Virus record (IMG/VR): IMGVR_UViG_3300002895_000002 | Span: 32,001-96,000 of that record | DNA from: a virus | Taxonomy: Duplodnaviria; Caudoviricetes | DNA length: 64,000 nt | Strand: one strand, 5' to 3' | In this document: one piece after another, positions 4,974 to 35,980 of the stretch | Layout: every line of letters begins with the position of its first letter | Numbering within the stretch: position 1 is the first letter of the stretch | Notes under the pieces: model-generated | The model's database searches: none | What the model saw: only the letters and a program-made list of their open reading frames with translations | What the model was told of the DNA's origin: nothing | Made by a program: the position numbers and the translations under genes

Positions 4974-5651
4974 ATGACCATAAAGAATTTTATCACCTGC
5001 GACCTATCACTCAAGAGCTCGGGTCTCTGTTATTTCAGAGACGGCGAGCTTTTTGATTTTGAGGTCATTGACTCGCTCGAGCCAGCCGAGCCCGAGCTGG
5101 TCCTGATCGCAAACTCCACCAGGATCGTAGAGTTTGTTAAGAAATATGCGGAGGATCTTGATCTCATTGCTCTTGAACGGTTTGCCTTTATGGCCAAGAG
5201 CGGAGATAAAGATCGCTTGTGGGCTAATTGCTGGATGGCCCGGTGTGGTATTCGATCCAAGGGTATTACATCTCCATTCCGTGAAATCTCTGTCTCAACG
5301 TGGCGAGGGCCGCTGTTCGACAAATTTGAGAAGGATGGGGTAAAGCTCGCTGCTCAACAGCTCAAGACCTGCAAACTCAAGGGACTGAAAGGTGAGGCCA
5401 GGAAAGAGATGCTGGCCAAGAGGGAAAAGCTTGAGCGGCTCGCTGATATAAAATGGGCGACAGTGAAGAAGCTCCCAGGTGAGGTCCGGTGCCGGTTTGA
5501 GACCTACCTTGAGAAGAGGGAGCTCCCGGAAGAATGCATCTTTGACATCACTGACGCGTATTTTATTGGCCAGTATGTTCTGAGCGGGAAAGAGCCGGTG
5601 AAGAAGCCCCGGAAACCTCGAAAGGCAAAGAAGGGATCTCAAGAGGACTGA
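4974..5651 (+). CDS. RuvC-like Holliday junction resolvase
   Basis: RNase H-fold motifs FITCDLSLKSSG, IALERFAF, DITDAYFIG; SD GAGGA. Confidence 0.8.
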   Translation: MTIKNFITCDLSLKSSGLCYFRDGELFDFEVIDSLEPAEPELVLIANSTRIVEFVKKYAEDLDLIALERFAFMAKSGDKDRLWANCWMARCGIRSKGITSPFREISVSTWRGPLFDKFEKDGVKLAAQQLKTCKLKGLKGEARKEMLAKREKLERLADIKWATVKKLPGEVRCRFETYLEKRELPEECIFDITDAYFIGQYVLSGKEPVKKPRKPRKAKKGSQED

Positions 5652-5780: not shown

Positions 5781-5809
5781 TTGACAGGTCGCGTCTTTTC
5801 TATTATACT
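5781..5809 (+). promoter_or_regulatory. sigma70-type promoter
   Basis: TTGACA-17-TATACT. Confidence 0.75.
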
Positions 5810-5921
5810 CGTATCATAACTTGATAAATTACCGCAGTGAATGTCCGAACCAACAGCAGATAATCAAAACGGGTCCTAGACCCAAATAGCATTGAAAAAG
5901 ACATCAAATCTGGAGGCAAGA

Positions 5922-7535
5922 ATGGGCCTGTCCTGGTTCACAGATGAAGAAGTAGTTCCCAAGAAGGAAGCCAAACAAAAAGCAGCGAAAGGTGAGGCTC
6001 CCCTTCGTAAGGACGACATCAAGGAGATGAACGATGTCGAGCACATCCTTCACCGGCCGACTATCTACATCGGTTCCGTCCTTGAAGAAGACATCGAGAC
6101 TTTCGTCTACGAAAATGGGCGGGTGGTGTCCAAGCCTGTGAAGCAGATTCCGGGTCTGTGTAAGATCATTGACGAGATCATAGACAACTCCGTTGACGAG
6201 GCGATCCGGACCAAATTCCAGTATGCCACGAAGATTGATGTAACCTTCAAAGATGGAACGGTAACGATCGAAGACAATGGTCGTGGTCTTCCCATCGAGC
6301 AACGGGAAGATGGCAAGTGGACCCCGGAAGTTATCTTTACCAAAACCAAATCCGGCTCTAACTTCAACGACGACGGCCGGGCTACGATGGGAATGAACGG
6401 GGTTGGCTCATCCCTCACTAACATTTTCTCAACCATCTTCAGTGTAGATACCGCCAACGGTGTCAAGCGGTTCCGTCAGACCTACGAAAATTCCATCTCG
6501 AAGATTGGGAAGCCGAAGATTGAGCCTGGCAAGAGCAACTACACCCAGGTTTCCTTCAGACCGAACTATGATTACTTCAAAGCGTCAGCTGAGACCATAT
6601 CCAACCTGCCGTTGTTGATCGAGAAACGGATCAGGAACCTGGCGTTTGCGTTCCCTGAAATCCAGTTCCGGTTCAACGGTCAGAAGATTGCAGGCGGAAA
6701 CCTCCGTCAGTTCCTGTCACAGATCCACGAGGTGTTTGAGTACAACGAAACAGATGACGCCAGGATTGGCGTGTTCTTCTCAGAAAATGATTTCCAGCAG
6801 ATCTCGTTCGTCAACGGTCTCGAGACCCGCCGGGGTGGTGTACACATCGACCAGATAATGAACAGGATCGTTGACTACCTGCGGGACTACCTGAAGAAGA
6901 AGCACAAGATCGAGGTCAAGCCGGCGGACATCAAGAGCAAGATCTTCCTGATGTTCTCGATGCGTATGACCAACGCCCAGTTTGATGGCCAAACCAAAGA
7001 ACGACTGATGAACAGCATCACTGAGTTCAAGGACACAATCGAGGGTGTGATAACTGAGAAGTTTCTCAAGACCATCGCCAAGAACGAAGAGATCATTGCT
7101 CCCATCGTTGAGTCCTACAAGCTCCAGCAGCAGGTCAAGGAGAACCTGGAGCTCAAGAAAATGTCCAAGGTGGCCAAGAAGGTCAAGGTGGACAAGTATT
7201 TCTCAGCTACCAACGAGCAACGGTATCTTATGTTGTGCGAAGGCGACTCAGCGGCAGGTGGATTGATGGCAGCTCTGGGTAGGGACCAGTTCTCTTACTT
7301 CGCCCTCCGTGGTGTACCCCTCAACGCTCACGAAGCTAAGGTCAGTAAGATCACTGACAACGAAGAGCTCAAGAACGTGGTGCAGATACTGAATCTGGAC
7401 CTCACTAAGGACTTCCAGGACATTCCTGAAGGCAGCTTATGGTTCGAAGTTGAACTTGACGGTGAGAAAATAGTAGTAAATGAAAACGATGAAGTATATG
7501 TCAATGGTAAATGGATAAAGGTAACAGAACTATGA
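5922..7535 (+). CDS. DNA topoisomerase II large subunit, N-terminal part (T4 gp39-like)
   Basis: GHKL ATPase motifs EIIDNSVDE, EDNGRGLP, GMNGVGSSLTN; TOPRIM start CEGDSA and LRGVPLN; lacks DxDG; SD GGAGG before ATG 5922. Confidence 0.95.
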   Translation: MGLSWFTDEEVVPKKEAKQKAAKGEAPLRKDDIKEMNDVEHILHRPTIYIGSVLEEDIETFVYENGRVVSKPVKQIPGLCKIIDEIIDNSVDEAIRTKFQYATKIDVTFKDGTVTIEDNGRGLPIEQREDGKWTPEVIFTKTKSGSNFNDDGRATMGMNGVGSSLTNIFSTIFSVDTANGVKRFRQTYENSISKIGKPKIEPGKSNYTQVSFRPNYDYFKASAETISNLPLLIEKRIRNLAFAFPEIQFRFNGQKIAGGNLRQFLSQIHEVFEYNETDDARIGVFFSENDFQQISFVNGLETRRGGVHIDQIMNRIVDYLRDYLKKKHKIEVKPADIKSKIFLMFSMRMTNAQFDGQTKERLMNSITEFKDTIEGVITEKFLKTIAKNEEIIAPIVESYKLQQQVKENLELKKMSKVAKKVKVDKYFSATNEQRYLMLCEGDSAAGGLMAALGRDQFSYFALRGVPLNAHEAKVSKITDNEELKNVVQILNLDLTKDFQDIPEGSLWFEVELDGEKIVVNENDEVYVNGKWIKVTEL

Positions 7536-16529: not shown

Positions 16530-17006
16530 ATGCTTGAAAACATCAAGATTCTTTTCACCACCTTCCTCATCTTCGGCATTCTCGTAGTCTCGCTCTACTT
16601 CGCGCCGGCATATCCGATTGCCAAGTTTGCTCTTGGGGTTATCAACACGATACTCATCTTCTGGGCGATCGTTCTTGTTATCGGTGCAGCGTTCCTTTGC
16701 TCAAACAGTGCTCGTTCGGATATTTCTAGCAAAATTGTGAAGGATGCTGCCTTTCGTGCGGACACCACAACGAAAGTACGCAACATTCTTTCCAAGACCA
16801 CATATATCTACGTCTGGAACTTCTGCATCGTCCTCTGCTACATTGCAGCATGTGCCTACGCCACAGCCAACAGTTTCTTCTTCACTGCATCCTTGATGCT
16901 CGTGTTGTCTATCGTAACATTCATCTTCCCTAGGGCAGTCGTTTCATTTGCGGAGTACTGTAATGATGTGATCATCAGGTATGACGAACGCGCAAGCTGG
17001 CGGTAG
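16530..17006 (+). CDS. multi-pass membrane protein
   Basis: about four hydrophobic segments. Confidence 0.7.
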   Translation: MLENIKILFTTFLIFGILVVSLYFAPAYPIAKFALGVINTILIFWAIVLVIGAAFLCSNSARSDISSKIVKDAAFRADTTTKVRNILSKTTYIYVWNFCIVLCYIAACAYATANSFFFTASLMLVLSIVTFIFPRAVVSFAEYCNDVIIRYDERASWR

Positions 17007-17010
17007 TAAT

Positions 17011-17039
17011 TTGACAGAACAATCATCTTCAAGTAATAT
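17011..17039 (+). promoter_or_regulatory. sigma70-type promoter
   Basis: TTGACA-17-TAATAT. Confidence 0.65.
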
Positions 17040-17067
17040 AAAAACAACAACAAACGAAGGAGAAAAT

Positions 17068-18009
17068 ATGAAACATATTGGTACGAGTAGTTTATGGGTA
17101 GAAAAATACCGCCCAAGATGCGTCGCAGACTACCTGGCAACACCTAAGGTCAAATCAATTCTCGACCACATCATTCAGACCAACGACATTCCTCATCTCC
17201 TGCTCTACTCCAAGAGCCCAGGCACAGGTAAGACCACGTTCGCAAACGTGGTGGCTAAAGAGCTCGAATGTGACCTGCTCTACAAGAACGGGTCAATCGA
17301 CACTAGCATCGACAGCATCCGGTATGACGTGCAGCAGTTCACAATGACCAGCTCACTGATGGGTGGGAAGAAGCTCGTGGTGCTCGACGAGGCAGAGCGG
17401 CTCTCACAGAATGCCCAGGAAGCACTGAAAGTCCTGATGGAACAGTGTGAAGGAAACGCACGGTTCATCATCTGTACCAACAACATGCAACGGGTGGTGG
17501 CTCCGGTTATCAGTCGTTGTCAGATCGTTGAGTTTGACCATACTGAGGCGGACAAGCAAGCACTGATGATTCAGTATTTCAAGCGGGTCCAGTTCATCCT
17601 CTCCAACGAAGGAGTTGAGTACGACAAAGCAGTGCTCGCAGAGCTCATCAAGAAGCTCTACCCAGACCTTCGCAAGACTATCGGTCAGCTCCAGCAATTC
17701 TCCAAAACCCACAAGAGCATCACCCAAGAAGTGTTAGGTGATCTCGACGATAGTCAGACCCTGGATCTCGTTGCGAAGATGAAGGCAAAGAAGTTCGAAC
17801 CGATCCGAGCAGCCTGCAGTAACATTGACCCAAGTGGATTTTTCTCAACGTTCTATGCTGAGATATCAAATCTTCTTCAGCCAGAGTGCATTCCCGATAC
17901 AATTTTGATTTTAGCCAGGTACGCGAACACGCATTGCCTAACTACAGATACCGAAATAAATCTCGCGGCATGCATCGTTGAGCTCATGTCAACCATCAAG
18001 TGGAAATAA
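17068..18009 (+). CDS. clamp loader large subunit (T4 gp44/RFC-like AAA+)
   Basis: LWVEKYRP, Walker A SPGTGKTT, Walker B LDEAE, SRC motif; SD AAGGAG. Confidence 0.95.
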   Translation: MKHIGTSSLWVEKYRPRCVADYLATPKVKSILDHIIQTNDIPHLLLYSKSPGTGKTTFANVVAKELECDLLYKNGSIDTSIDSIRYDVQQFTMTSSLMGGKKLVVLDEAERLSQNAQEALKVLMEQCEGNARFIICTNNMQRVVAPVISRCQIVEFDHTEADKQALMIQYFKRVQFILSNEGVEYDKAVLAELIKKLYPDLRKTIGQLQQFSKTHKSITQEVLGDLDDSQTLDLVAKMKAKKFEPIRAACSNIDPSGFFSTFYAEISNLLQPECIPDTILILARYANTHCLTTDTEINLAACIVELMSTIKWK

Positions 18010-18910
18010 TTACAGAAGATTCTATCCGGAGAGACCAACCAGGTGTTGAAGAAAGTCTCCGGATAGAATCTTTCTTTTTCAAACCAGGGCTGATATTGAT
18101 TGGAGGGACAACAGTTCCTTTGTTGGCTAGGAGCTGTTTTGGTGATAGGAGATGCTCATTACAGAAATCCCAAAGATCTGCCGTTTTAAATTCCTTACCA
18201 TCAGGGCTGGTTAGTATATAGAGTTTATTTGTTATCCTTATGTTTTTGCCTTGGGTCTTTTCCGGCAATGGGCTGAATTGATTTGGGGCATCATATAGTT
18301 CGGACAACAACCATCCTTCGGTGTTCATGAGACGTTGGACTGAATTTGGTTTGTGTAGGCCCAATGGAATTTCGATTTTTGGGACAACAGATCCAAGATG
18401 AGCCAAGAGATGCTTAGGAGAAAGGGTTAGGTGAGTACACCACTGAATCAGGTCATTGATTAGATATTCATTGCCATTTGGGTCTGTGAGATTGTAGAAT
18501 TTTTTATTGTGTGGTGTCGATCCTTTTATGAATGGTTTCATTCTTTCTCTGATTTGTGGTTGGTTTGTTATTTTCCCTTGATAGTTTGGGTTATTTTCTC
18601 CGGATCGAAACCCAGAACCGCCCGGAATTTGATTATAAGTGTCTGTTCTAGATATAAACCAGTCATCAACAATCATTTTTTCTAGTTCATAGGCGTGTTC
18701 ATCCGATAAAGCTTCGTGAAGAATTATTCGTTCGAAGTTTTCTCGGCCATAAAGTTTGATTGCATCAGAAATTATGGTTCCGGACCCAAGGTATGGATCA
18801 CTTTTGGTATGAGAAGAATGTTTTCCAACGTAGATTTTACCGTTGATCTTATTGCGGATGAGATAAACGAAATGATAGACTGGGTCTTTTTTACCACGAC
18901 GGGAACGCAT
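17996..18910 (-). mobile_element. GIY-YIG homing endonuclease (Seg-like)
   Basis: FVYLIRNKINGKIYVGKH; tandem DNA-binding repeats (LTDPNGNEY / LTSPDGKEF); SD GAGGTG before ATG 18910. Confidence 0.9.
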
Positions 18911-18922
18911 GACATTCACCTC

Positions 18923-19012
18923 AATAAATAGATGTGACGGGGACAGTGGAGTTTCACCTCCTCCATTGGTTGTCAGTGCCACCTGCAACCTTACCTGTTC
19001 CTTTTATTTATC
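18923..19012. ncRNA. structured HEG-leader element, copy 1
   Basis: two hairpins bounded by opposed ATAAATA boxes; 72 nt (18924-18995) identical to copy 3. Confidence 0.7.
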
Positions 19013-19046
19013 ATTTCCCAAAAAATAAAGAAAATAGAGTCAACTA

Positions 19047-19226
19047 ATGAATAAAGAAATGAAGATCAGATGTCAGGTTTGTGGGGAATGGATTCCTGTT
19101 CGTTATATTCACGAGCATGTTGATTGGCAACACCAGGTCAATACTGAATACCATAGTTACATCATGAGTTTAACAATCGAACAGATATTAGAAAATTCCA
19201 AGAATCAATTCCAGATTAGAATTTGA
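19047..19226 (+). CDS. 59-aa C2H2-like zinc-finger protein, copy 1 (absent from ORF track)
   Basis: MNKEMKIRCQVCGEWIPVRYIHEHVDWQH...; paralog at 32502 differs mostly at synonymous sites. Confidence 0.75.
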   Translation: MNKEMKIRCQVCGEWIPVRYIHEHVDWQHQVNTEYHSYIMSLTIEQILENSKNQFQIRI

Positions 19227-19251
19227 CAAGATTTGAGTTCGGTGTTACTGT
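19223..19251 (+). promoter_or_regulatory. sigma70-type promoter overlapping the zinc-finger stop
   Basis: TTGACA (contains the TGA stop)-17-TACTGT with TG. Confidence 0.65.
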
Positions 19252-19270
19252 ATAGAAAAGGAGATGATCC

Positions 19271-19654
19271 ATGGCTAAGCTATTCGATTACATTGACGCT
19301 CTGACCACCAAGAAGCCAATCAAAGAGGACCCGGATGTCTTCCAGAAAGACTTCCAACCGTTTATCATCAATCGAGTGTTTTCGTGTGATAATAACCTGG
19401 TTCTCATCGCCAATCTCTGTAACCAGGGTGGAATGACCAAGGAGATGATCCGGGATCTGTATTATTACGGAGTCCCGAAAGGCAAACGGTTTATCAAGTA
19501 TTCCGCAAAGAAAGAAAAGTCAGACGGACTGATCAAATACCTGATGGACTACTTCGGAGTCAACCAACATACAGCGAAGCAATATGCTGTGCTTCTGGAT
19601 AAGAAAGAGATTGACGAAATTGTCGAGTTTTACGAGAAAAGAGGGAAGGGTTAG
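19271..19654 (+). CDS. clamp loader small subunit (T4 gp62-like)
   Basis: LFDYIDAL, FQPFIINRVFS, YYYGVPKGKRFIKY, YFGVN...AKQY. Confidence 0.85.
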   Translation: MAKLFDYIDALTTKKPIKEDPDVFQKDFQPFIINRVFSCDNNLVLIANLCNQGGMTKEMIRDLYYYGVPKGKRFIKYSAKKEKSDGLIKYLMDYFGVNQHTAKQYAVLLDKKEIDEIVEFYEKRGKG

Positions 19655-19743
19655 TCCAGACAATCGTCAAACCCAAAGTCCGTTCATACGCATGGATTGG
19701 ATGTCCGATTCATAGAAATATTAACCAAAGAAAGGAATGTCAC

Positions 19744-20208
19744 GTGTCACAACCGCAACTCGGATTCACAAGAACAAAAGATGTACAAGCACCAAACCGG
19801 GGAACCCCCAAATCCGCTGGTGTTGATTTCTATGTCCCGGATACCTTCAACGACGGACACCCACTCACTATTCGCCCCGGGGAGCATGTCAAGATTGAGA
19901 TGGGCATCCATGTCCGAATCCCGTCTGGCTTTGCTCTCATTCTGTCCCTCGACAAGAGCGGGATTGGTGCGAAGGGTATCAAGGTCACTGGTGGGGTCAT
20001 TGACGAGGACTACCAGGGTGAGATCATGCTGTTCTTCTACAACATCGGTCAAGAGCCGCAACTCATCAAACCCGGCCAGAAGATTGCTCAAGGCCTGCTC
20101 ATTCCTGTCCTGTACGCAGATGTGGTTGAGTACGAGTACAAAACTGATCTGTATGCCGACCATAAATCCGAGCGTGGTGAAGGCGGCTTCGGCTCGACAG
20201 GAGTGTAA
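19744..20208 (+). CDS. dut: trimeric dUTPase
   Basis: SAGVDF, KSG, GVIDEDYQGE, KIAQ, RGEGGFGSTG. Confidence 0.95.
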   Translation: MSQPQLGFTRTKDVQAPNRGTPKSAGVDFYVPDTFNDGHPLTIRPGEHVKIEMGIHVRIPSGFALILSLDKSGIGAKGIKVTGGVIDEDYQGEIMLFFYNIGQEPQLIKPGQKIAQGLLIPVLYADVVEYEYKTDLYADHKSERGEGGFGSTGV

Positions 20209-20210
20209 CC

Positions 20211-20675
20211 ATGCACGTCGAAGGAATCTACAAGGGTTATGTGGTATTCACCAATGACCGGGAGGGACTAGTGAACCCCCGCTCTATCTACTCATACGAG
20301 AAACCCGGCGCAGTCAAGACCGGCGACATCCGGGTTATCGAAGGGTGTATCTGGTATGTCAGCACCATCGACGAGATCACCGAGGAACGCCGGATGCCGC
20401 TTGAAATGTTCTTGGGACCGAAGCACGTCCGTGACCAGGTGTGGTGGCGCCGGGTTCCTGAAAAGAGCACCAAAGCCATCGAGGACATCCAGCACCGCCT
20501 GGGTGAAATCGAAAACTGGTTGAACAGTCCCGCTCCGTGGTGCACCGTGGATGATGTGAAGGCTCTCATAGCCGATGCCATTACCGCCAACCCGAGCATC
20601 ACCGCTGCTGAACTGGATGAAACCATCCGGCATCATCTGGATACTTACAAGCACAAGGAGCGGACAAATGGCTAA
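20211..20675 (+). CDS. hypothetical protein
   Basis: 154 aa, phage codon usage. Confidence 0.7.
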   Translation: MHVEGIYKGYVVFTNDREGLVNPRSIYSYEKPGAVKTGDIRVIEGCIWYVSTIDEITEERRMPLEMFLGPKHVRDQVWWRRVPEKSTKAIEDIQHRLGEIENWLNSPAPWCTVDDVKALIADAITANPSITAAELDETIRHHLDTYKHKERTNG

Positions 20676-21432
20676 GGTGATCGGTATCGCCGGCAAGATC
20701 GGCAGCGGCAAGGGCTACTTCGCCTCCAAGCTCATCGCTGACCTGAAGAACGACGGGAAGAGCGTGGCCTACACTGCATACGCCGATCCACTCAAGGACG
20801 TGCTCCTCAGGAACTTCGGCCTGACCAAGACTGGCTTCAAGGGGTACTCTCCACTCGACTACCAAGGTGACGGTTACACCAACACCAAGGTCAGGTTACG
20901 GAAGGGACTCTGGCATTGGCACAAGAAGATCGTCAGCTGGGACTTATTGTCATTCCATGATCAACTCAACGAGAGCCGATCGTTTGATGCTCTCTTTGAG
21001 GAACTCTTCGACACCTACGGCCCGAAACTGGTAGGGCTGATGCGGAAGATCGGTGATGCCGAGGCGAACTATGATGACACGTTCCGCCAGATCATCCAGA
21101 TGGTCGGCACGGAGTTCGGCCGTGGCATCAACGAGAACTTCTGGATCCTCGCCACCTTCGCCAAGATCCATGCAGCACTCGAGGGTGGCTTCGATGCCGC
21201 CGTGATCGACGATGTACGCTTCCCGAACGAGAAGACCGAGCTGGAACTCTTCTGTCAGGAGGCGGACTACATCTGCGAGGTGTGGGGTGTTACTGCATCG
21301 GATAAAGTGAGAGCTCAGCGGAGGGGCATGACCGTAAATGCCATGACTGAGTTTGATCAACACGGCTCCGAGCGGTATATTGACGATATCATCGCCACGC
21401 TACCGCCGGAGTTTATTGTGGTGAACGACTAA
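20668..21432 (+). CDS. deoxynucleoside monophosphate kinase (T4 gp1-like)
   Basis: IGIAGKIGSGKG, ADPLK, RQIIQMVGTEFGR, VIDDVRFPNE. Confidence 0.9.
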   Translation: MAKVIGIAGKIGSGKGYFASKLIADLKNDGKSVAYTAYADPLKDVLLRNFGLTKTGFKGYSPLDYQGDGYTNTKVRLRKGLWHWHKKIVSWDLLSFHDQLNESRSFDALFEELFDTYGPKLVGLMRKIGDAEANYDDTFRQIIQMVGTEFGRGINENFWILATFAKIHAALEGGFDAAVIDDVRFPNEKTELELFCQEADYICEVWGVTASDKVRAQRRGMTVNAMTEFDQHGSERYIDDIIATLPPEFIVVND

Positions 21433-28642: not shown

Positions 28643-29299
28643 TCATTGATAATGAAGATGCATGGCTAAGATAATTATAAGTTCCTTTCTTTCTCGTGCT
28701 AATCTTTTATGTGTAGCTGACATTTTATTTTTAGTTTCTTCTGAAATTATCTGTTTTGCCCGGGCTTCCTTGATTTTATTTTTAGATTCATCTGAATGTT
28801 GTTTTCCAAAGAACGAATTTTTATTTCCTTTGTGGGAATCGCTTTGTTGTTTGATGTAGTCCTCGGAATAGGCATACCCATTTGCAAATTTAGAATGCCT
28901 GGTTTTTGATATTTTTTGTTTAGTGCTTTCGGATTGAATGTAACCCATTTTAGCATCAGATATTTTTTGTTTATGTTCGTCTGAATGTGAATAATTTATT
29001 CGTAAAAGTAAATAATCTTTTGACCCATATCTCTTACAATTTGTCATTCTTAGAATTGCTTTAGCCATTTTTGGGCCTTTGACTTTATGGCCACGCCAGA
29101 TACGAGCAAGAAGCAGATGGGCAATGAAGTGTTCCCTGATGGGTAGATTGACTCTGTTCCATGAACCATGTATATCTTCTATTCCATCAAGCTTTGCAAA
29201 CGACTTTGGAATAATGTGATGACTTTCGGTTTGTTTTTTGATCTTGGAAGTGTTTCAGTTGTGTTCAATAAGACGGTCGTAAATGGACTGGTAATTCAT
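28643..29299 (-). mobile_element. HNH homing endonuclease (Mob-like, NUMOD3 repeats) with in-frame TGA at codon 15
   Basis: MNYQSIYDRLIEHN*...ESHHIIPKS...NRVNLPIREHFIAHLLLARIW; NUMOD3 NSFFGKQHSDESK; TGA at 29255-29257. Confidence 0.85.
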
Positions 29300-29310
29300 G
29301 ACAGTTCCCC

Positions 29311-29402
29311 TATAAATAGATGTGACGAGGACAGCAGGGAAGTTCCCCTCTCTGTTGGTCGTGTACGCCCATACCGACCTTACTCGTTCTATTCTATTTA
29401 TA
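29311..29402. ncRNA. structured HEG-leader element, copy 2 (diverged)
   Basis: same flanks as copies 1 and 3, with compensatory stem changes. Confidence 0.7.
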
Positions 29403-29418
29403 ATTTCTTTTCAAATAG

Positions 29419-29446
29419 TTGACTTTTTATATCAATGTTGTATAAT
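29419..29446 (+). promoter_or_regulatory. sigma70-type promoter
   Basis: TTGACT-16-TATAAT. Confidence 0.6.
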
Positions 29447-29470
29447 TTAACTTATTTGTAAGGAGAAAAT

Positions 29471-30802: not shown

Positions 30803-31616
30803 GCTTCCCATCGTTGAAAAATTCGGTCCGGCCATCCAGGGTGAGGGGTTACTTGCAGGAACACCGTCACTCTTCATTCGGGTCTTTGGTTGCAACCTTC
30901 GTTGTCAGTTTGGGTGCTCCTCTGACGAATACGCAGCGTTCCGAAAGCAACTTGCTGAGGATACCGCTGGGATCACCAATCTCGATGATTTCCCGGTTGT
31001 GTCGACGGGGTGTGATACCCCTTACTCCATCTTCCCTGAGTATCGCCGGTTCACAAAGACGGAAAGCCCCCTGGACCTTGAGCGGTGGGTTGTTGAACGG
31101 CTCACTCGGGACATGCATTTGGTTATCACTGGTGGTGAACCACTGCTCCCGGGTTATCAGGAAGCATGGGAAGAGCTTCTTGAGAATCTCAAAATACAAG
31201 GATATGATCTCGGAAAGGTCACGTTCGAGACCAACGGAACTCAGCCACTAACTGGGTGGTTCTCCAGGTTCCTTTGGCGTAACGATGATGTCAATTTTTC
31301 TATCAGCCCAAAGCTCTCATGCTCCGGGATGGCTCCTGAAAAAGCACTGGTCCCTGATGCTATTCAGTCATATGAAGACGCCGGCGTCAATATGTGGTTC
31401 AAATTTGTCGTTGCATCAGACAAGGACGCAGAGGAGGCTCTGGAAGCGGTTAAGAGCTTTGGCTTGTGCTGTGATTACCCGATCTACTTTATGCCGATGG
31501 GTGGCACGAAAGATACGCTCTCTGAAAGAGCAACATACGAGCTGGCTCTCAAGTATGGCGTCCGGTATAGCCCGAGACTACAGGTATCTATCCTTGATAA
31601 TGGGATTGGTGTTTAG
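30795..31616 (+). CDS. queE: 7-carboxy-7-deazaguanine synthase (radical SAM)
   Basis: IQGEGLLAGTPSLFIRVFGCNLRC...GCDTPY, VITGGEP, FETNGT, ISPKL, YSPRLQ. Confidence 0.9.
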   Translation: MNRLPIVEKFGPAIQGEGLLAGTPSLFIRVFGCNLRCQFGCSSDEYAAFRKQLAEDTAGITNLDDFPVVSTGCDTPYSIFPEYRRFTKTESPLDLERWVVERLTRDMHLVITGGEPLLPGYQEAWEELLENLKIQGYDLGKVTFETNGTQPLTGWFSRFLWRNDDVNFSISPKLSCSGMAPEKALVPDAIQSYEDAGVNMWFKFVVASDKDAEEALEAVKSFGLCCDYPIYFMPMGGTKDTLSERATYELALKYGVRYSPRLQVSILDNGIGV

Positions 31617-32367
31617 GTTTGCTACATCCGGGAATTCGACCCCGGACCCAACCCATTTCTAAATAATGTTGAGCTTGCTCTGGAGAAACCAGGAAATGCT
31701 GAGAATGGTTAGTCACCCATACCTTACCTTTGGTGTTACTGACCATCCCTTTCATTGTTTGTTTTCTTTTTTCGTTTGATTCGGGTGTTGGTGGCTGTCC
31801 TTTGGGGTGAGAATAGAATTTTTCTTTCGTGTGAGCAGGCCACCCCATCTGGTATCCCATTTCAAGATACCGAGGAACCTCTTCGGGTGGTACTCGAAAA
31901 CACCCAGAACTGTTATGAACAACCTTTCTTCCCGTAAACTTTTTAGATCGATTGATATAACCAGCCTTGCAATTTTCAGTTCCGTGAGGAGGAGTATCCC
32001 CTCCATCCGTACTGTTTGTCAATGGACCACCATTGATCGTTCTACCAATCAAAGAAATAAGAAACGGTTCGTAGCAATACAGAGCAGTAAACTCAACCAG
32101 GTTGGAAGATGTTTTTATAATATAATCTCTTATATCAAAATGCTGCATTATAGCCCGAATGGTGTTGTTTTTATGTTTATTCGTACATCTCTCCATGCTT
32201 TTCTTCTGCAAGTGATATCTCCATCTATCACCAGTACCCTTACCAACATAGAAAGGTTCATAGAAGAAGGTAACGAAATTTCCGTAGGTATATCTTCCGG
32301 GCTTCCGAGGGTCAAGATAGATGTAGACATAATACTTGGGTTCGTGGGAGAACTTTGCTGTTTTCAC
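31588..32367 (-). mobile_element. GIY-YIG (LEM-3-like) homing endonuclease
   Basis: YYVYIYLDPRK...PFYVGKGTGDR; repeated KVVHNS/KVWVTNH domains; SD GAGGTG + GTG. Confidence 0.85.
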
Positions 32368-32378
32368 GATTTCACCTC

Positions 32379-32470
32379 TATAAATAGATGTGACGGGGAC
32401 AGTGGAGTTTCACCTCCTCCATTGGTTGTCAGTGCCACCTGCAACCTTACCCGTTCCATCCTTATTTATC
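32379..32470. ncRNA. structured HEG-leader element, copy 3
   Basis: 72-nt identity to copy 1. Confidence 0.7.
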
Positions 32471-32501
32471 AAATCCTAAGAAAATCAATGGAAATAAACC
32501 A

Positions 32502-32681
32502 ATGAATAAAGAAATGAAGATCAGATGTCAGGTTTGTGGTGAATGGATTCCAGTTCGGTACATTCATAACCACGTGGATTGGCAACACCAGGCCAACACC
32601 GAATACCATAGTTACATTATGGGATTAACAGTCGAAGAGATATTAGAAAATTCAAAGAATAATTTCCAGCTCAGAATTTGA
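32502..32681 (+). CDS. 59-aa C2H2-like zinc-finger protein, copy 2 (absent from ORF track)
   Basis: 52/59 aa identical to 19047-19226. Confidence 0.75.
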   Translation: MNKEMKIRCQVCGEWIPVRYIHNHVDWQHQANTEYHSYIMGLTVEEILENSKNNFQLRI

Positions 32682-32706
32682 CAGATCCCTCTCTTCATGT
32701 TACCAT
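32678..32706 (+). promoter_or_regulatory. sigma70-type promoter overlapping the zinc-finger stop
   Basis: TTGACA-17-TACCAT with TG. Confidence 0.65.
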
Positions 32707-32745: not shown

Positions 32746-33423
32746 ATGGCATTTGATCCATCAAAACTCGACAAAACACTCGGCAATCAAATTCACGAAC
32801 ATCTGAAGACACTCGGGATTGAAACTCCCACGACAGATCTGCTTTTGCTGGATGATGAACAGAAGATCCAGACCATTATGCCACACGTCCAAGCAATTCT
32901 CGAGACTCTCGGTCTTGACCTGACCGATGACAGTCTTCAGGACACTCCGAAGCGGGTTGCGAAGATGTGGGTTCGAGAAAAGTTCTGGGGTCTGTGTCCG
33001 GGCAAGTTCCCGAAGATGATGACTATCGAGAACAAGATGAAATACCAACAGATGGTCTGTGAGAAAAACATTCGGGTCCTGTCCGACTGTGAACACCACC
33101 TGGCTCAGATCGATGGTTTCGCTCACGTCGCGTATATCTCCAACGGCAAGATTCTCGGTCTGTCCAAGCTCAACCGGATCGTTCAGTATTTCTCGGCAAG
33201 ACCCCAGGTCCAAGAGAGGATTGGCGAGCAGATCGGTGAGGCTCTCAAGTTCATCCTGGGCACAGAAGACGTCGCTGTATGCATCGAAGCTTCTCATTAC
33301 TGCGTGATTGCTCGTGGTGCAAGGGACTACGAATCTTCGACCACCACATCGTTCCTTTCCGGCGTATTCAGGGATGATCCCATGGTCCGGTCGGAGTTCT
33401 ACTCCATGGTCAACGGAAAATAA
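32746..33423 (+). CDS. folE: GTP cyclohydrolase I
   Basis: DTPKRVAKMW, SDCEHH, GLSKLNRIV, RPQVQER, HYCVIARG. Confidence 0.97.
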   Translation: MAFDPSKLDKTLGNQIHEHLKTLGIETPTTDLLLLDDEQKIQTIMPHVQAILETLGLDLTDDSLQDTPKRVAKMWVREKFWGLCPGKFPKMMTIENKMKYQQMVCEKNIRVLSDCEHHLAQIDGFAHVAYISNGKILGLSKLNRIVQYFSARPQVQERIGEQIGEALKFILGTEDVAVCIEASHYCVIARGARDYESSTTTSFLSGVFRDDPMVRSEFYSMVNGK

Positions 33424-34780: not shown

Positions 34781-35143
34781 ATGATCAAAAGGTACATTGA
34801 AGTTCAGATTGTTAAGGAAGGGTGTCACCGTTATCCAGCAGCAGAAACAGATCCAAAACTGGCTGACGTTGATTATCTAGCAAACAGACATTTTCACTAT
34901 TTCTACATCACGGTCAAGATTGAAGTATTTCATAATGATCGGTGTCTTGAATTTCAACAATTTCGTCGATATCTCGAGAAACTCTATAATCAAGGAATTC
35001 TCGAGATAGATTTCAAGTCATGTGAAATGCTCGCCGAAGACCTCATCGGAACTTTGAGCCGAACATATCCAGACCGGGATATGTCAATTCGAGTGTTTGA
35101 AGATAATATCAACGGTGCTGAATTAGTGTATACTGTTGACTAG
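34781..35143 (+). CDS. small QueD-like T-fold protein, DpdL (CDG decarboxylase) candidate
   Basis: HRYPAA...RHFHYF...HNDRCLEF...SCEMLAE; follows dpdA directly. Confidence 0.45.
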   Translation: MIKRYIEVQIVKEGCHRYPAAETDPKLADVDYLANRHFHYFYITVKIEVFHNDRCLEFQQFRRYLEKLYNQGILEIDFKSCEMLAEDLIGTLSRTYPDRDMSIRVFEDNINGAELVYTVD

Positions 35144-35917
35144 GATTGAACTGACAGTTTCTGGGTTATTGTATATTTCAGATTCTTTGAATCGAATGAC
35201 ACGATAACCCAGACTGTCAGCAATCAATTCACATTCATTATCGCGTTTTATTGTTTCTGGTTTTGAATGCCAATAATCACCATCTACTTCAACTAGGATG
35301 TTTGTATTTTTGATCAAAAAATCATAACAGTGGCGCCAATTTGAATTTTTGGTCTTTTTGAATTGGATAAGAAATTGTTGCTCATATTCTATTCCAAGAG
35401 ATGACATGATCTCAATCATTTTCCTCTCTGGTTTAGTATTGGAACCCAAACGACCGGATTTGATTAGAGAAATAACATTTCTCGACGTTGCATCTTTGTG
35501 TTTTTCCGTTCTGGTATATCGCCCAATTCTAGAATTATCACGAACAGCAGCAGATCTCTTCATTTTTTCTTTTGCATCTTCAGAATGGGTCTTTCCAAAC
35601 ATGGGATTATTTTCACCAATCGTTTTGCCCTTCTTTGCATTGGAAATATTCTCATTTCTATTCTTTACCCATTCTGGATCTTTTGATTTTTCATCTATTG
35701 ATTTTCTTGCACGTTCAGCCATTCTTTTTGCATGGCTGGATCTTTCTTCCGGGGTTGTTCTCGCTTCTCTTGATTCTTTTTGTCTTCTAATTATTTCGGG
35801 GCATTTGGTTATTGATTTTTGACATCGCTTTGTTTTTGTGTTATAACTGATGTATAGAGCAGGAAGACCACAATATGCACAGACGTCTTGTTCGGTTGGG
35901 TTCTCAATCAATGGCAT
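35123..35917 (-). mobile_element. homing endonuclease, NUMOD3 + Vsr/DUF559-like domain
   Basis: GENNPMFGKTHSEDAK; CYDFLIKNTNILVEVDGDYWH; SD GGAG. Confidence 0.85.
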
Positions 35918-35980
35918 GGTAAATACTCCAGACATAAATTCATTCTATCCATCATTATTTATCAAGAAAGGCAAGAAATA

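Follow-up and report, generated by a model that had tools for sequence, protein, structure and literature searches.

A small zinc-finger gene whose stop codon lies in a putative outward promoter, beside homing endonuclease genes of a T4-like phage

Gene layout at two homing endonuclease loci

The window analyzed here is a stretch of 64,000 nucleotides (bases 32001-96000) from an IMG/VR virus record that is 213,116 bp long and rated complete. The phage is an uncultured, deep-branching T4-like phage. Pfam searches identified clamp-loader genes like gp44 and gp62 as well as a 7-deazaguanine cluster (queD/queE/folE), and its gp44 shares at most 37% identity with that of any GenBank phage. A blastn search of window positions 17000-21000 against GenBank phages gave no match, and scans of IMG/VR with gp62 and folE found no close relatives.

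At two loci, a backwards-facing homing endonuclease gene is followed by a structured element, a 59-codon plus-strand open reading frame (ORF) for a zinc-finger protein, a candidate sigma-70-type promoter, and a core gene (Table 1). A preliminary description of this DNA had reported the two ORFs as 52/59 identical at the residue level with mostly synonymous changes, as diverging from two different GIY-YIG genes, and as ending in a TGA that belongs to a TTGACA promoter of the downstream core gene. The coordinates, ligand pattern, and substitution counts agree with this account, both nuclease genes lie on the minus strand and match different Pfam models, and the stop codon falls inside the predicted promoter at both loci. 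Equally correct was the remark that an HNH locus in the window carries the element without the finger gene.

Table 1. Features of the two finger-gene loci and of a comparison locus (window coordinates)
Feature	Coordinates	Strand	Basis or remarks
Homing endonuclease gene A	17996..18910	-	GIY-YIG, SegE type; Pfam PF19835 E 1.8e-5, PHROG 314 E 1.9e-33
Element copy A	18905..19025 (core 18915-19001)	+	Covariance model R1, 124 bits; RNAalifold
Zinc-finger gene copy A	19047..19226	+	59 aa, further in-frame ATG at codon 5; dN/dS, AF2, homologue P0003
Outward sigma-70-type promoter A (predicted)	19223..19251	+	TTGACA with finger TGA stop, 17 nt, TACTGT, TGn before; motif class genome-wide
gp62-like clamp-loader small subunit	19271..19654	+	Pfam PF16790 E 2.2e-10, PHROG 225 E 2.9e-24
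Comparison locus	29294..29447	+	Element copy 29294-29415, then TTGACT-N17-TATAAT directly; no finger gene; adjoins frame-broken HNH gene
Homing endonuclease gene B	31588..32367	-	GIY-YIG, LEM-3-like, GTG start; Pfam PF22945 E 2.3e-8
Element copy B	32362..32483 (core 32371-32457)	+	Core 85/87 nt identical to copy A
Zinc-finger gene copy B	32502..32681	+	59 codons; comparison with copy A
Outward promoter B (predicted)	32678..32706	+	TTGACA with TGA stop, 17 nt, TACCAT, TG before; aligns with L014 promoter
folE (GTP cyclohydrolase I), 7-deazaguanine cluster	32746..33423	+	Pfam PF01227 E 1.8e-56

Nuclease gene A probably starts at the ATG at 18910, preceded by the Shine-Dalgarno sequence GAGGTGAA, and its product has no significant similarity to nuclease B (pairwise E 0.25). 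At 17996-18009, nuclease gene A and the gp44-like clamp-loader gene overlap convergently by their 14 stop-proximal nucleotides, so that the insert abuts the gp44-like gene without a spacer or terminator. The DNA shared by loci A and B spans the nuclease Shine-Dalgarno site to the -35 hexamer and ends there, and the promoter spacers are unrelated. Elsewhere in the window, a minus-strand gene at 35123-35935 encodes a DUF559/Vsr-like endonuclease with NUMOD3 and an N-terminal Cys-rich segment. Only a TTATTTATCA motif and no element is found at its start, and the syntenic position in a related phage contig (L014; see below) holds a different nuclease (DUF723).

The motif TTGACA-N17-TAnnnT occurs 52 times on the plus strand of the genome and twice on the minus strand, mostly before genes and with a consensus of TGT-TATTAT at -10. 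By this distribution it is the predicted early promoter class of the phage, with both finger-gene stops among its members, and the 52:2 strand bias makes the outward promoters credible. A strict promoter scan accepted copy B (10/12 match) and left copy A below its threshold.

The finger gene and its product

A profile search of all six frames of the whole genome found exactly two copies of the finger gene. Both encode the ligand pattern C9-x2-C12-x11-H24-x4-H29, and their products differ by seven changes (E23N, V31A, S41G, I44V, Q46E, Q54N, and I57L). Of the 22 nucleotide differences, 6 are at first, 1 at second, and 15 at third codon positions. The preliminary description had proposed a dN/dS comparison, and the Nei-Gojobori estimates are a dS of 0.62 and a dN of 0.067 (dN/dS 0.108, Fisher p 9e-6), against a ratio of 2.1 when the same DNA is read in the +1 frame. 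Because most differences between the copies are synonymous, the ORF is, by its pattern of substitution, a translated gene under purifying selection. The Shine-Dalgarno sites of copies A and B are weak. When the leader and ORF start of copies A and B and of the L014 homologue were folded, no common pairing that masks the start codon was found (z-scores 0.07, -0.5, and -1.8, respectively).

Identity between the two loci is distributed as a mosaic (18915-19226 versus 32371-32681), with 98% in the element, 100% over ORF nucleotides 1-39, and 84% in the remaining ORF; the 45-nt spacer is visibly poorly conserved and contains indels. An identical run as long as that at the ORF start has a P of ~0.06 of occurring anywhere in the ORF and is given little weight. 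From these identities, the element may have been homogenized apart from the finger gene.

A phmmer search of 1.84 billion protein representatives returned six matches, of which one, P0003, is a small full-length homologue. P0003 is 56 aa long and shares 45% identity with the finger protein across 47 residues (BLASTP, pairwise E 3e-15), and its ligands C9, C12, H24, and H29 are all invariant. Four of the five larger matches are multi-finger proteins that align repeat by repeat, and the fifth is a repeat protein, P0004, whose ligand set is incomplete. No homologue beyond the genome and the related contig emerged from a word-based search of 5.8 billion proteins with the single sequence and the profile, and none was found by IMG/VR scans with sequence and profile, by a profile scan of JGI metagenomes, by tblastn of both family members against GenBank phages, or by a six-frame profile search of the genome and all fetched loci. 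A check of co-occurrence with homing endonuclease genes had been proposed earlier; no homologue was seen away from a nuclease gene in the protein, IMG/VR, JGI, and GenBank phage searches.

The gene for P0003 sits in L014, a 35.7-kb contig of a related phage (also represented by L015) whose folE is 76% identical to that of this phage. Along this contig, queE is followed by an HNH/NUMOD3-like gene on the minus strand, by the element (124 bits), by the finger gene, whose Shine-Dalgarno site is strong, and then by TTGACA-N17-TACCAT and folE. The TGA of the finger gene likewise lies inside TTGACA, and the promoter and folE leader align with locus B. Before folE, the finger gene and the predicted promoter are thus retained in both phages while the nuclease family differs, GIY-YIG here and HNH in L014. 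The three known finger genes accordingly adjoin genes for an HNH/NUMOD3 enzyme (in L014) and for two GIY-YIG enzymes, one SegE-type and one LEM-3-like. Copies A and B are equidistant from P0003 (26 identities each), and for that reason the copy before gp62 is probably a later duplicate. Two of the three copies occupy one site, before folE, and only one relocation is therefore documented.

An AF2 model from the three-sequence alignment (pLDDT 84, pTM 0.65) has strands at residues 6-8 and 15-17, a helix at 18-28, and further helices at 33-40 and 44-52. As modeled, the product is a small protein of 55-59 residues in which a single C2H2 finger with the beta-beta-alpha fold is followed by two helices. 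The second Cys is separated from the first His by 11 residues, one fewer than in the C2H2 pattern Cys-x2-4-Cys-x12-His-x3-5-His, and this spacing is the same in all three members. Classical C2H2 and UBZ fingers superpose on the model with an rmsd of 0.5-1.2 A over 21-30 residues. Among C2H2 Pfam models, none reached E <=0.1 or its gathering threshold against the finger protein. The nearest UBZ model, zf_UBZ (PF18439), scored 13.4 bits with copy A only (E 0.062), below its cutoff of 25.6. The best PDB sequence match of the three-sequence profile is the UBZ of polymerase eta (E 0.037).

Structural searches point in the same direction, and all their scores are below significance. The top Foldseek PDB matches are the UBZ fingers of RAD18, polymerase eta, and WRNIP1 (rmsd 0.5-2.9 A across 21-31 columns), with no E below 0.9 and thus no significant structural relative in that search. 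VIA-align against 48,161 PDB chains was uninformative (best Z 3.7), PADLOC and NCBIfam searches yielded nothing useful, and the best PHROG matches (E ~0.01) are families of unknown function. In the ESM Atlas, one viral NUMOD3/DUF559 nuclease cluster matched with a TM of 0.56 over 43 residues, a span too short to be informative. When the finger protein was modeled in complex with nuclease A, the score was 0.01 (mark 0.32), which gives no verdict either way.

The finger protein resembles the UBZ fingers of polymerase eta (UBZ3; 2i5o and 3wup) and of RAD18 and WRNIP1 (UBZ4; 5vf0 and 3vhs) in being a single beta-beta-alpha finger whose motif, C-x2-C-G-x2-(I/V)-P-x5-6-H-(V/M)-D-x-x-H, aligns with polymerase eta. 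It differs from them in its His-His spacing of 4 rather than 3 and in its two extra C-terminal helices. With classical C2H2 fingers (PF00096 and PF13894), it shares the Cys2-His2 ligands, the fold, and the repeat-by-repeat phmmer matches to multi-finger proteins (E 1e-8 to 1e-4); it differs in having a single finger with the shorter middle spacing, in matching no Pfam C2H2 model at E 0.1, and in being acidic without a basic recognition helix. Acidic residues outnumber basic ones, and the pI is 6.4 for copies A and B and 5.75 for P0003. Because the protein is acidic to neutral (pI 5.8-6.4), nucleic-acid binding is disfavored, and protein binding would most likely be its own activity. It may serve as a UBZ-like adaptor aimed at a ubiquitin-like defense protein of the host. 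Ubiquitin is not known from the presumed bacterial host.

The three-way-junction element and its companions

A covariance model built from 11 copies detects 16 elements in the genome, all on the plus strand. For 13 of them, the immediate neighbor is a called nuclease ORF of at least 40 aa on the minus strand (GIY-YIG or HNH); the remaining three stand beside a nuclease ORF that is decayed or uncalled. RNAalifold yields a three-way junction of 26 pairs, 13 of them with compensatory changes. The plus strand would form ~14 G-U pairs, compared with 2 positions that would be G-U on the minus strand. The P2 loop of the element repeats the plus-strand sequence at the Shine-Dalgarno or ribosome-binding site of each nuclease gene. 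An Rfam scan of the window assigned no family, to the element or otherwise, and a pattern scan of JGI metagenomes for the element found nothing.

A ATAAATAG motif bounds the element on the plus strand, and most copies have this motif as a boundary on the minus strand as well; the far-side boundary of copy A is the reverse complement of the ATAAATA core. Among the plus-strand sites of TATAAATA outside elements, 16/22 have an ORF of at least 60 aa within 90 nt downstream, and 11/14 of its minus-strand sites lie inside elements. Judged by these positions, TATAAATA behaves as a late promoter in this phage. Outside the window, at genome position 211916, a plus-strand HNH gene (its product starts MNYQSIYDR) lies directly behind TATAAATA. 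This gene has no three-way-junction element, which suggests that the element accompanies backwards-facing nuclease genes only.

At the comparison locus, the HNH/NUMOD3 gene (window 28643-29310) is split into at least three minus-strand frames and is a decayed endonuclease gene; the neighboring element and TTGACT-N17-TATAAT promoter motif are intact. The element also occurs in three AT-rich IMG/VR phage contigs (L016 at 2764-2885, L017 at 2719-2838 and 5807-5925, and L018 at 2095-2213 and 5182-5301) and is therefore not confined to this phage. In these contigs it adjoins a gene for a Cys-rich PD-(D/E)XK-like nuclease, and its P2 loop matches the ribosome-binding site of that neighbor.

Origin and possible role of the finger gene

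The finger gene is present at 2/16 element/nuclease loci of the genome and absent from the other 14, and it is found at 0/3 distinct element loci of contigs L016-L018, which are only ~11 kb long. These counts contradict the earlier view that the gene completes a self-contained cassette. Three contigs with a folE 59-63% identical to that of this phage (L019, L020, and L022) have no nuclease gene before folE, and in the gaps of 32-47 nt that precede it we found neither the finger gene nor TTGACA. The block is thus present in this phage and L014 and absent from these three, but the latter constitute weak evidence because they are distant and their gene order is different. The GC3 of the finger gene (0.38 and 0.43 in this phage; 0.40 in L014) falls within the range of the nuclease genes (0.29-0.45) and below that of the flanking core genes (0.52-0.66). 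Judged by this composition and by its absence from relatives without the nuclease gene, the finger gene would belong to the mobile, AT-rich part of the genome.

We favor, at roughly an even chance of being right, the explanation that an inserted block carries the finger gene as optional cargo. The cassette works without it and its three neighbors are dissimilar, which argues for an optional passenger rather than a nuclease-specific partner. From left to right, the block would comprise the backwards homing endonuclease gene, the element with convergent late promoters on its two sides, the finger gene, and the outward early promoter, beyond which lies the core gene. Its right-hand arm would be made up of the finger gene plus the stop-fused sigma-70-type promoter. 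The finger gene would be transcribed rightward as a cistron after the plus-strand leader of the element, either from the ATAAATAG late-type promoter or by read-through. The backwards nuclease gene would interrupt the core-gene operon, and the promoter in the last codons of the finger gene would restart early transcription of the gp62-like gene or folE. The finger gene would persist and be copied together with the element and promoter scaffold, whatever nuclease lies on the left. Its retention is perhaps aided by the fusion of a needed gene's promoter to its stop codon, which makes simple deletion costly. The preliminary description had further proposed that the block moves as a unit and avoids polar effects. 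The fixed order, the recurrence in L014, and the absence of both finger gene and promoter from relatives without the nuclease gene agree with this, while the mobility as a unit, like the timing of expression and the biochemical role of the finger gene, is something that we infer.

The main rival explanation, which we consider rather unlikely, holds that the finger gene is a resident accessory gene: the gene and its promoter would be ordinary phage DNA upstream of folE, nuclease cassettes would repeatedly land immediately upstream of it, and the gp62-side copy would stem from a single event, either ectopic recombination or co-conversion by way of the shared element. Co-conversion of flanking DNA is the known inheritance mode of free-standing endonucleases (PMC2988022). 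The finger ATG lies 19-22 nt past the element, where the first ordinary core gene starts at 10 other loci, as a resident gene might. An alignment of this phage with L014 matches the finger gene, the promoter, and the folE 5' UTR even though the nuclease differs, so that at this site the finger gene is more stable than any nuclease, and the equal distance of copies A and B from P0003 makes the duplication younger than the split between the phages. However, a resident gene fits poorly with the AT-rich, low-GC3 composition in both phages, which is like that of the nuclease genes and unlike that of the core genes, with the joint absence of the finger gene and promoter where the nuclease gene is missing, and with the lack of any homologue apart from a nuclease gene in the searches made.

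Less probable still is a trans-acting cofactor, one that would tune the expression of all 16 backwards nuclease genes by binding the conserved three-way-junction RNA, the duplex of sense and antisense leaders, or the element as DNA. For this, one or two copies of the gene would suffice genome-wide, and the rightward transcript would be both an antisense regulator and the mRNA of a helper protein, a dual-function RNA. All three known finger genes do lie directly behind an element, on the strand favored for RNA by the ~14 G-U pairs; both judgeable phages have elements and the finger gene; and several C2H2-like finger classes bind RNA or double-stranded RNA. Yet the protein has more acidic than basic residues and a pI of 6.4 or 5.75, it matches no RNA-binding finger family, its nearest look-alikes are protein-binding UBZ fingers, and contigs L016-L018, short as they are, have elements without it. 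A specific partner of the adjacent endonuclease, whether an inhibitor (immunity protein) or a DNA-binding subunit acting in trans, was proposed earlier; adjacency and divergent orientation are all that speaks for it. We judge it very improbable, since the neighbors are two non-alignable GIY-YIG enzymes of different Pfam models and an HNH-type enzyme, with no consistent pairing with one nuclease family as in inhibitor or toxin-antitoxin-like systems, since 14 other nuclease loci do without the gene, and since the protein is acidic. The least credible reading is that of a chance ORF kept because its DNA serves as a leader or promoter. The weak Shine-Dalgarno sites of copies A and B and the lack of homologues outside this phage lineage would suit it, but the substitutions are frame-specific (0.11 in frame against 2.1 in the +1 frame), the frame stays open with all metal ligands at 45% identity, the L014 copy has its strong Shine-Dalgarno site, and the fold is confidently predicted.

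The cargo explanation has its closest parallel in phage T4, where promoters that serve downstream genes lie in or beside homing endonuclease inserts (seg and mob), an arrangement said to favor retention; examples are segG/gene 32, segA, segE, mobB, mobC, and a middle promoter between mobE and nrdB (PMC2988022). In both cases, a selfish nuclease gene displaces the point where host transcription starts, the needed downstream gene would be driven by a promoter that lies in the insert or at its border, retention of the insert would be favored, and flanking DNA would be co-converted on homing. By sequence, the inserts here likewise contain a predicted promoter for the gene downstream. With this precedent, the cassette logic of an outward promoter that repairs polarity appears sound by analogy. 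The present inserts differ from those of T4 in the backwards orientation of the nuclease gene, in a promoter that shares the stop of a separate small zinc-finger gene rather than lying within the nuclease ORF, and in the covarying RNA element that stands between the nuclease gene and the finger gene.

Two features are new: an orphan C2H2-type gene with its stop codon fused to an outward promoter, and evidence, from comparison of the sequences, that would indicate exchange of the nuclease ORF on a constant element-finger-promoter scaffold. They portray a selfish insert as a set of exchangeable modules (nuclease ORF, regulatory element, cargo gene, and restart promoter) in which the nuclease is swappable and the scaffold constant, and in which a small gene may be locked in by a stop codon shared with the promoter of a needed gene. 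With three members, the finger proteins make up an orphan phage family whose finger is eukaryote-like (C2H2/UBZ-type); this fold has seldom been reported from phages. Dual-function RNAs such as SgrS/SgrT and RNAIII/hld combine a base-pairing regulator with an mRNA. Were the plus-strand leader to hold back the nuclease mRNA as an antisense RNA, the finger protein would, by analogy, be encoded on that very transcript, and if that protein acted on the shared element, this would amount to protein-assisted antisense control of homing endonucleases. Unlike those RNAs, 14/16 leaders here run into ordinary genes or promoters.

A similar layout with unrelated small zinc proteins is found outside the window at genome positions 143162-143614 (locus L023). 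A truncated 60-aa HNH stub is followed there by the element, a Cys-rich 61-aa ORF, and a 40-aa zinc-ribbon ORF (Pfam Zn_Ribbon_1, E 8e-6), and TTGACA-N17-TAAACT lies within the last codons of the zinc-ribbon ORF.
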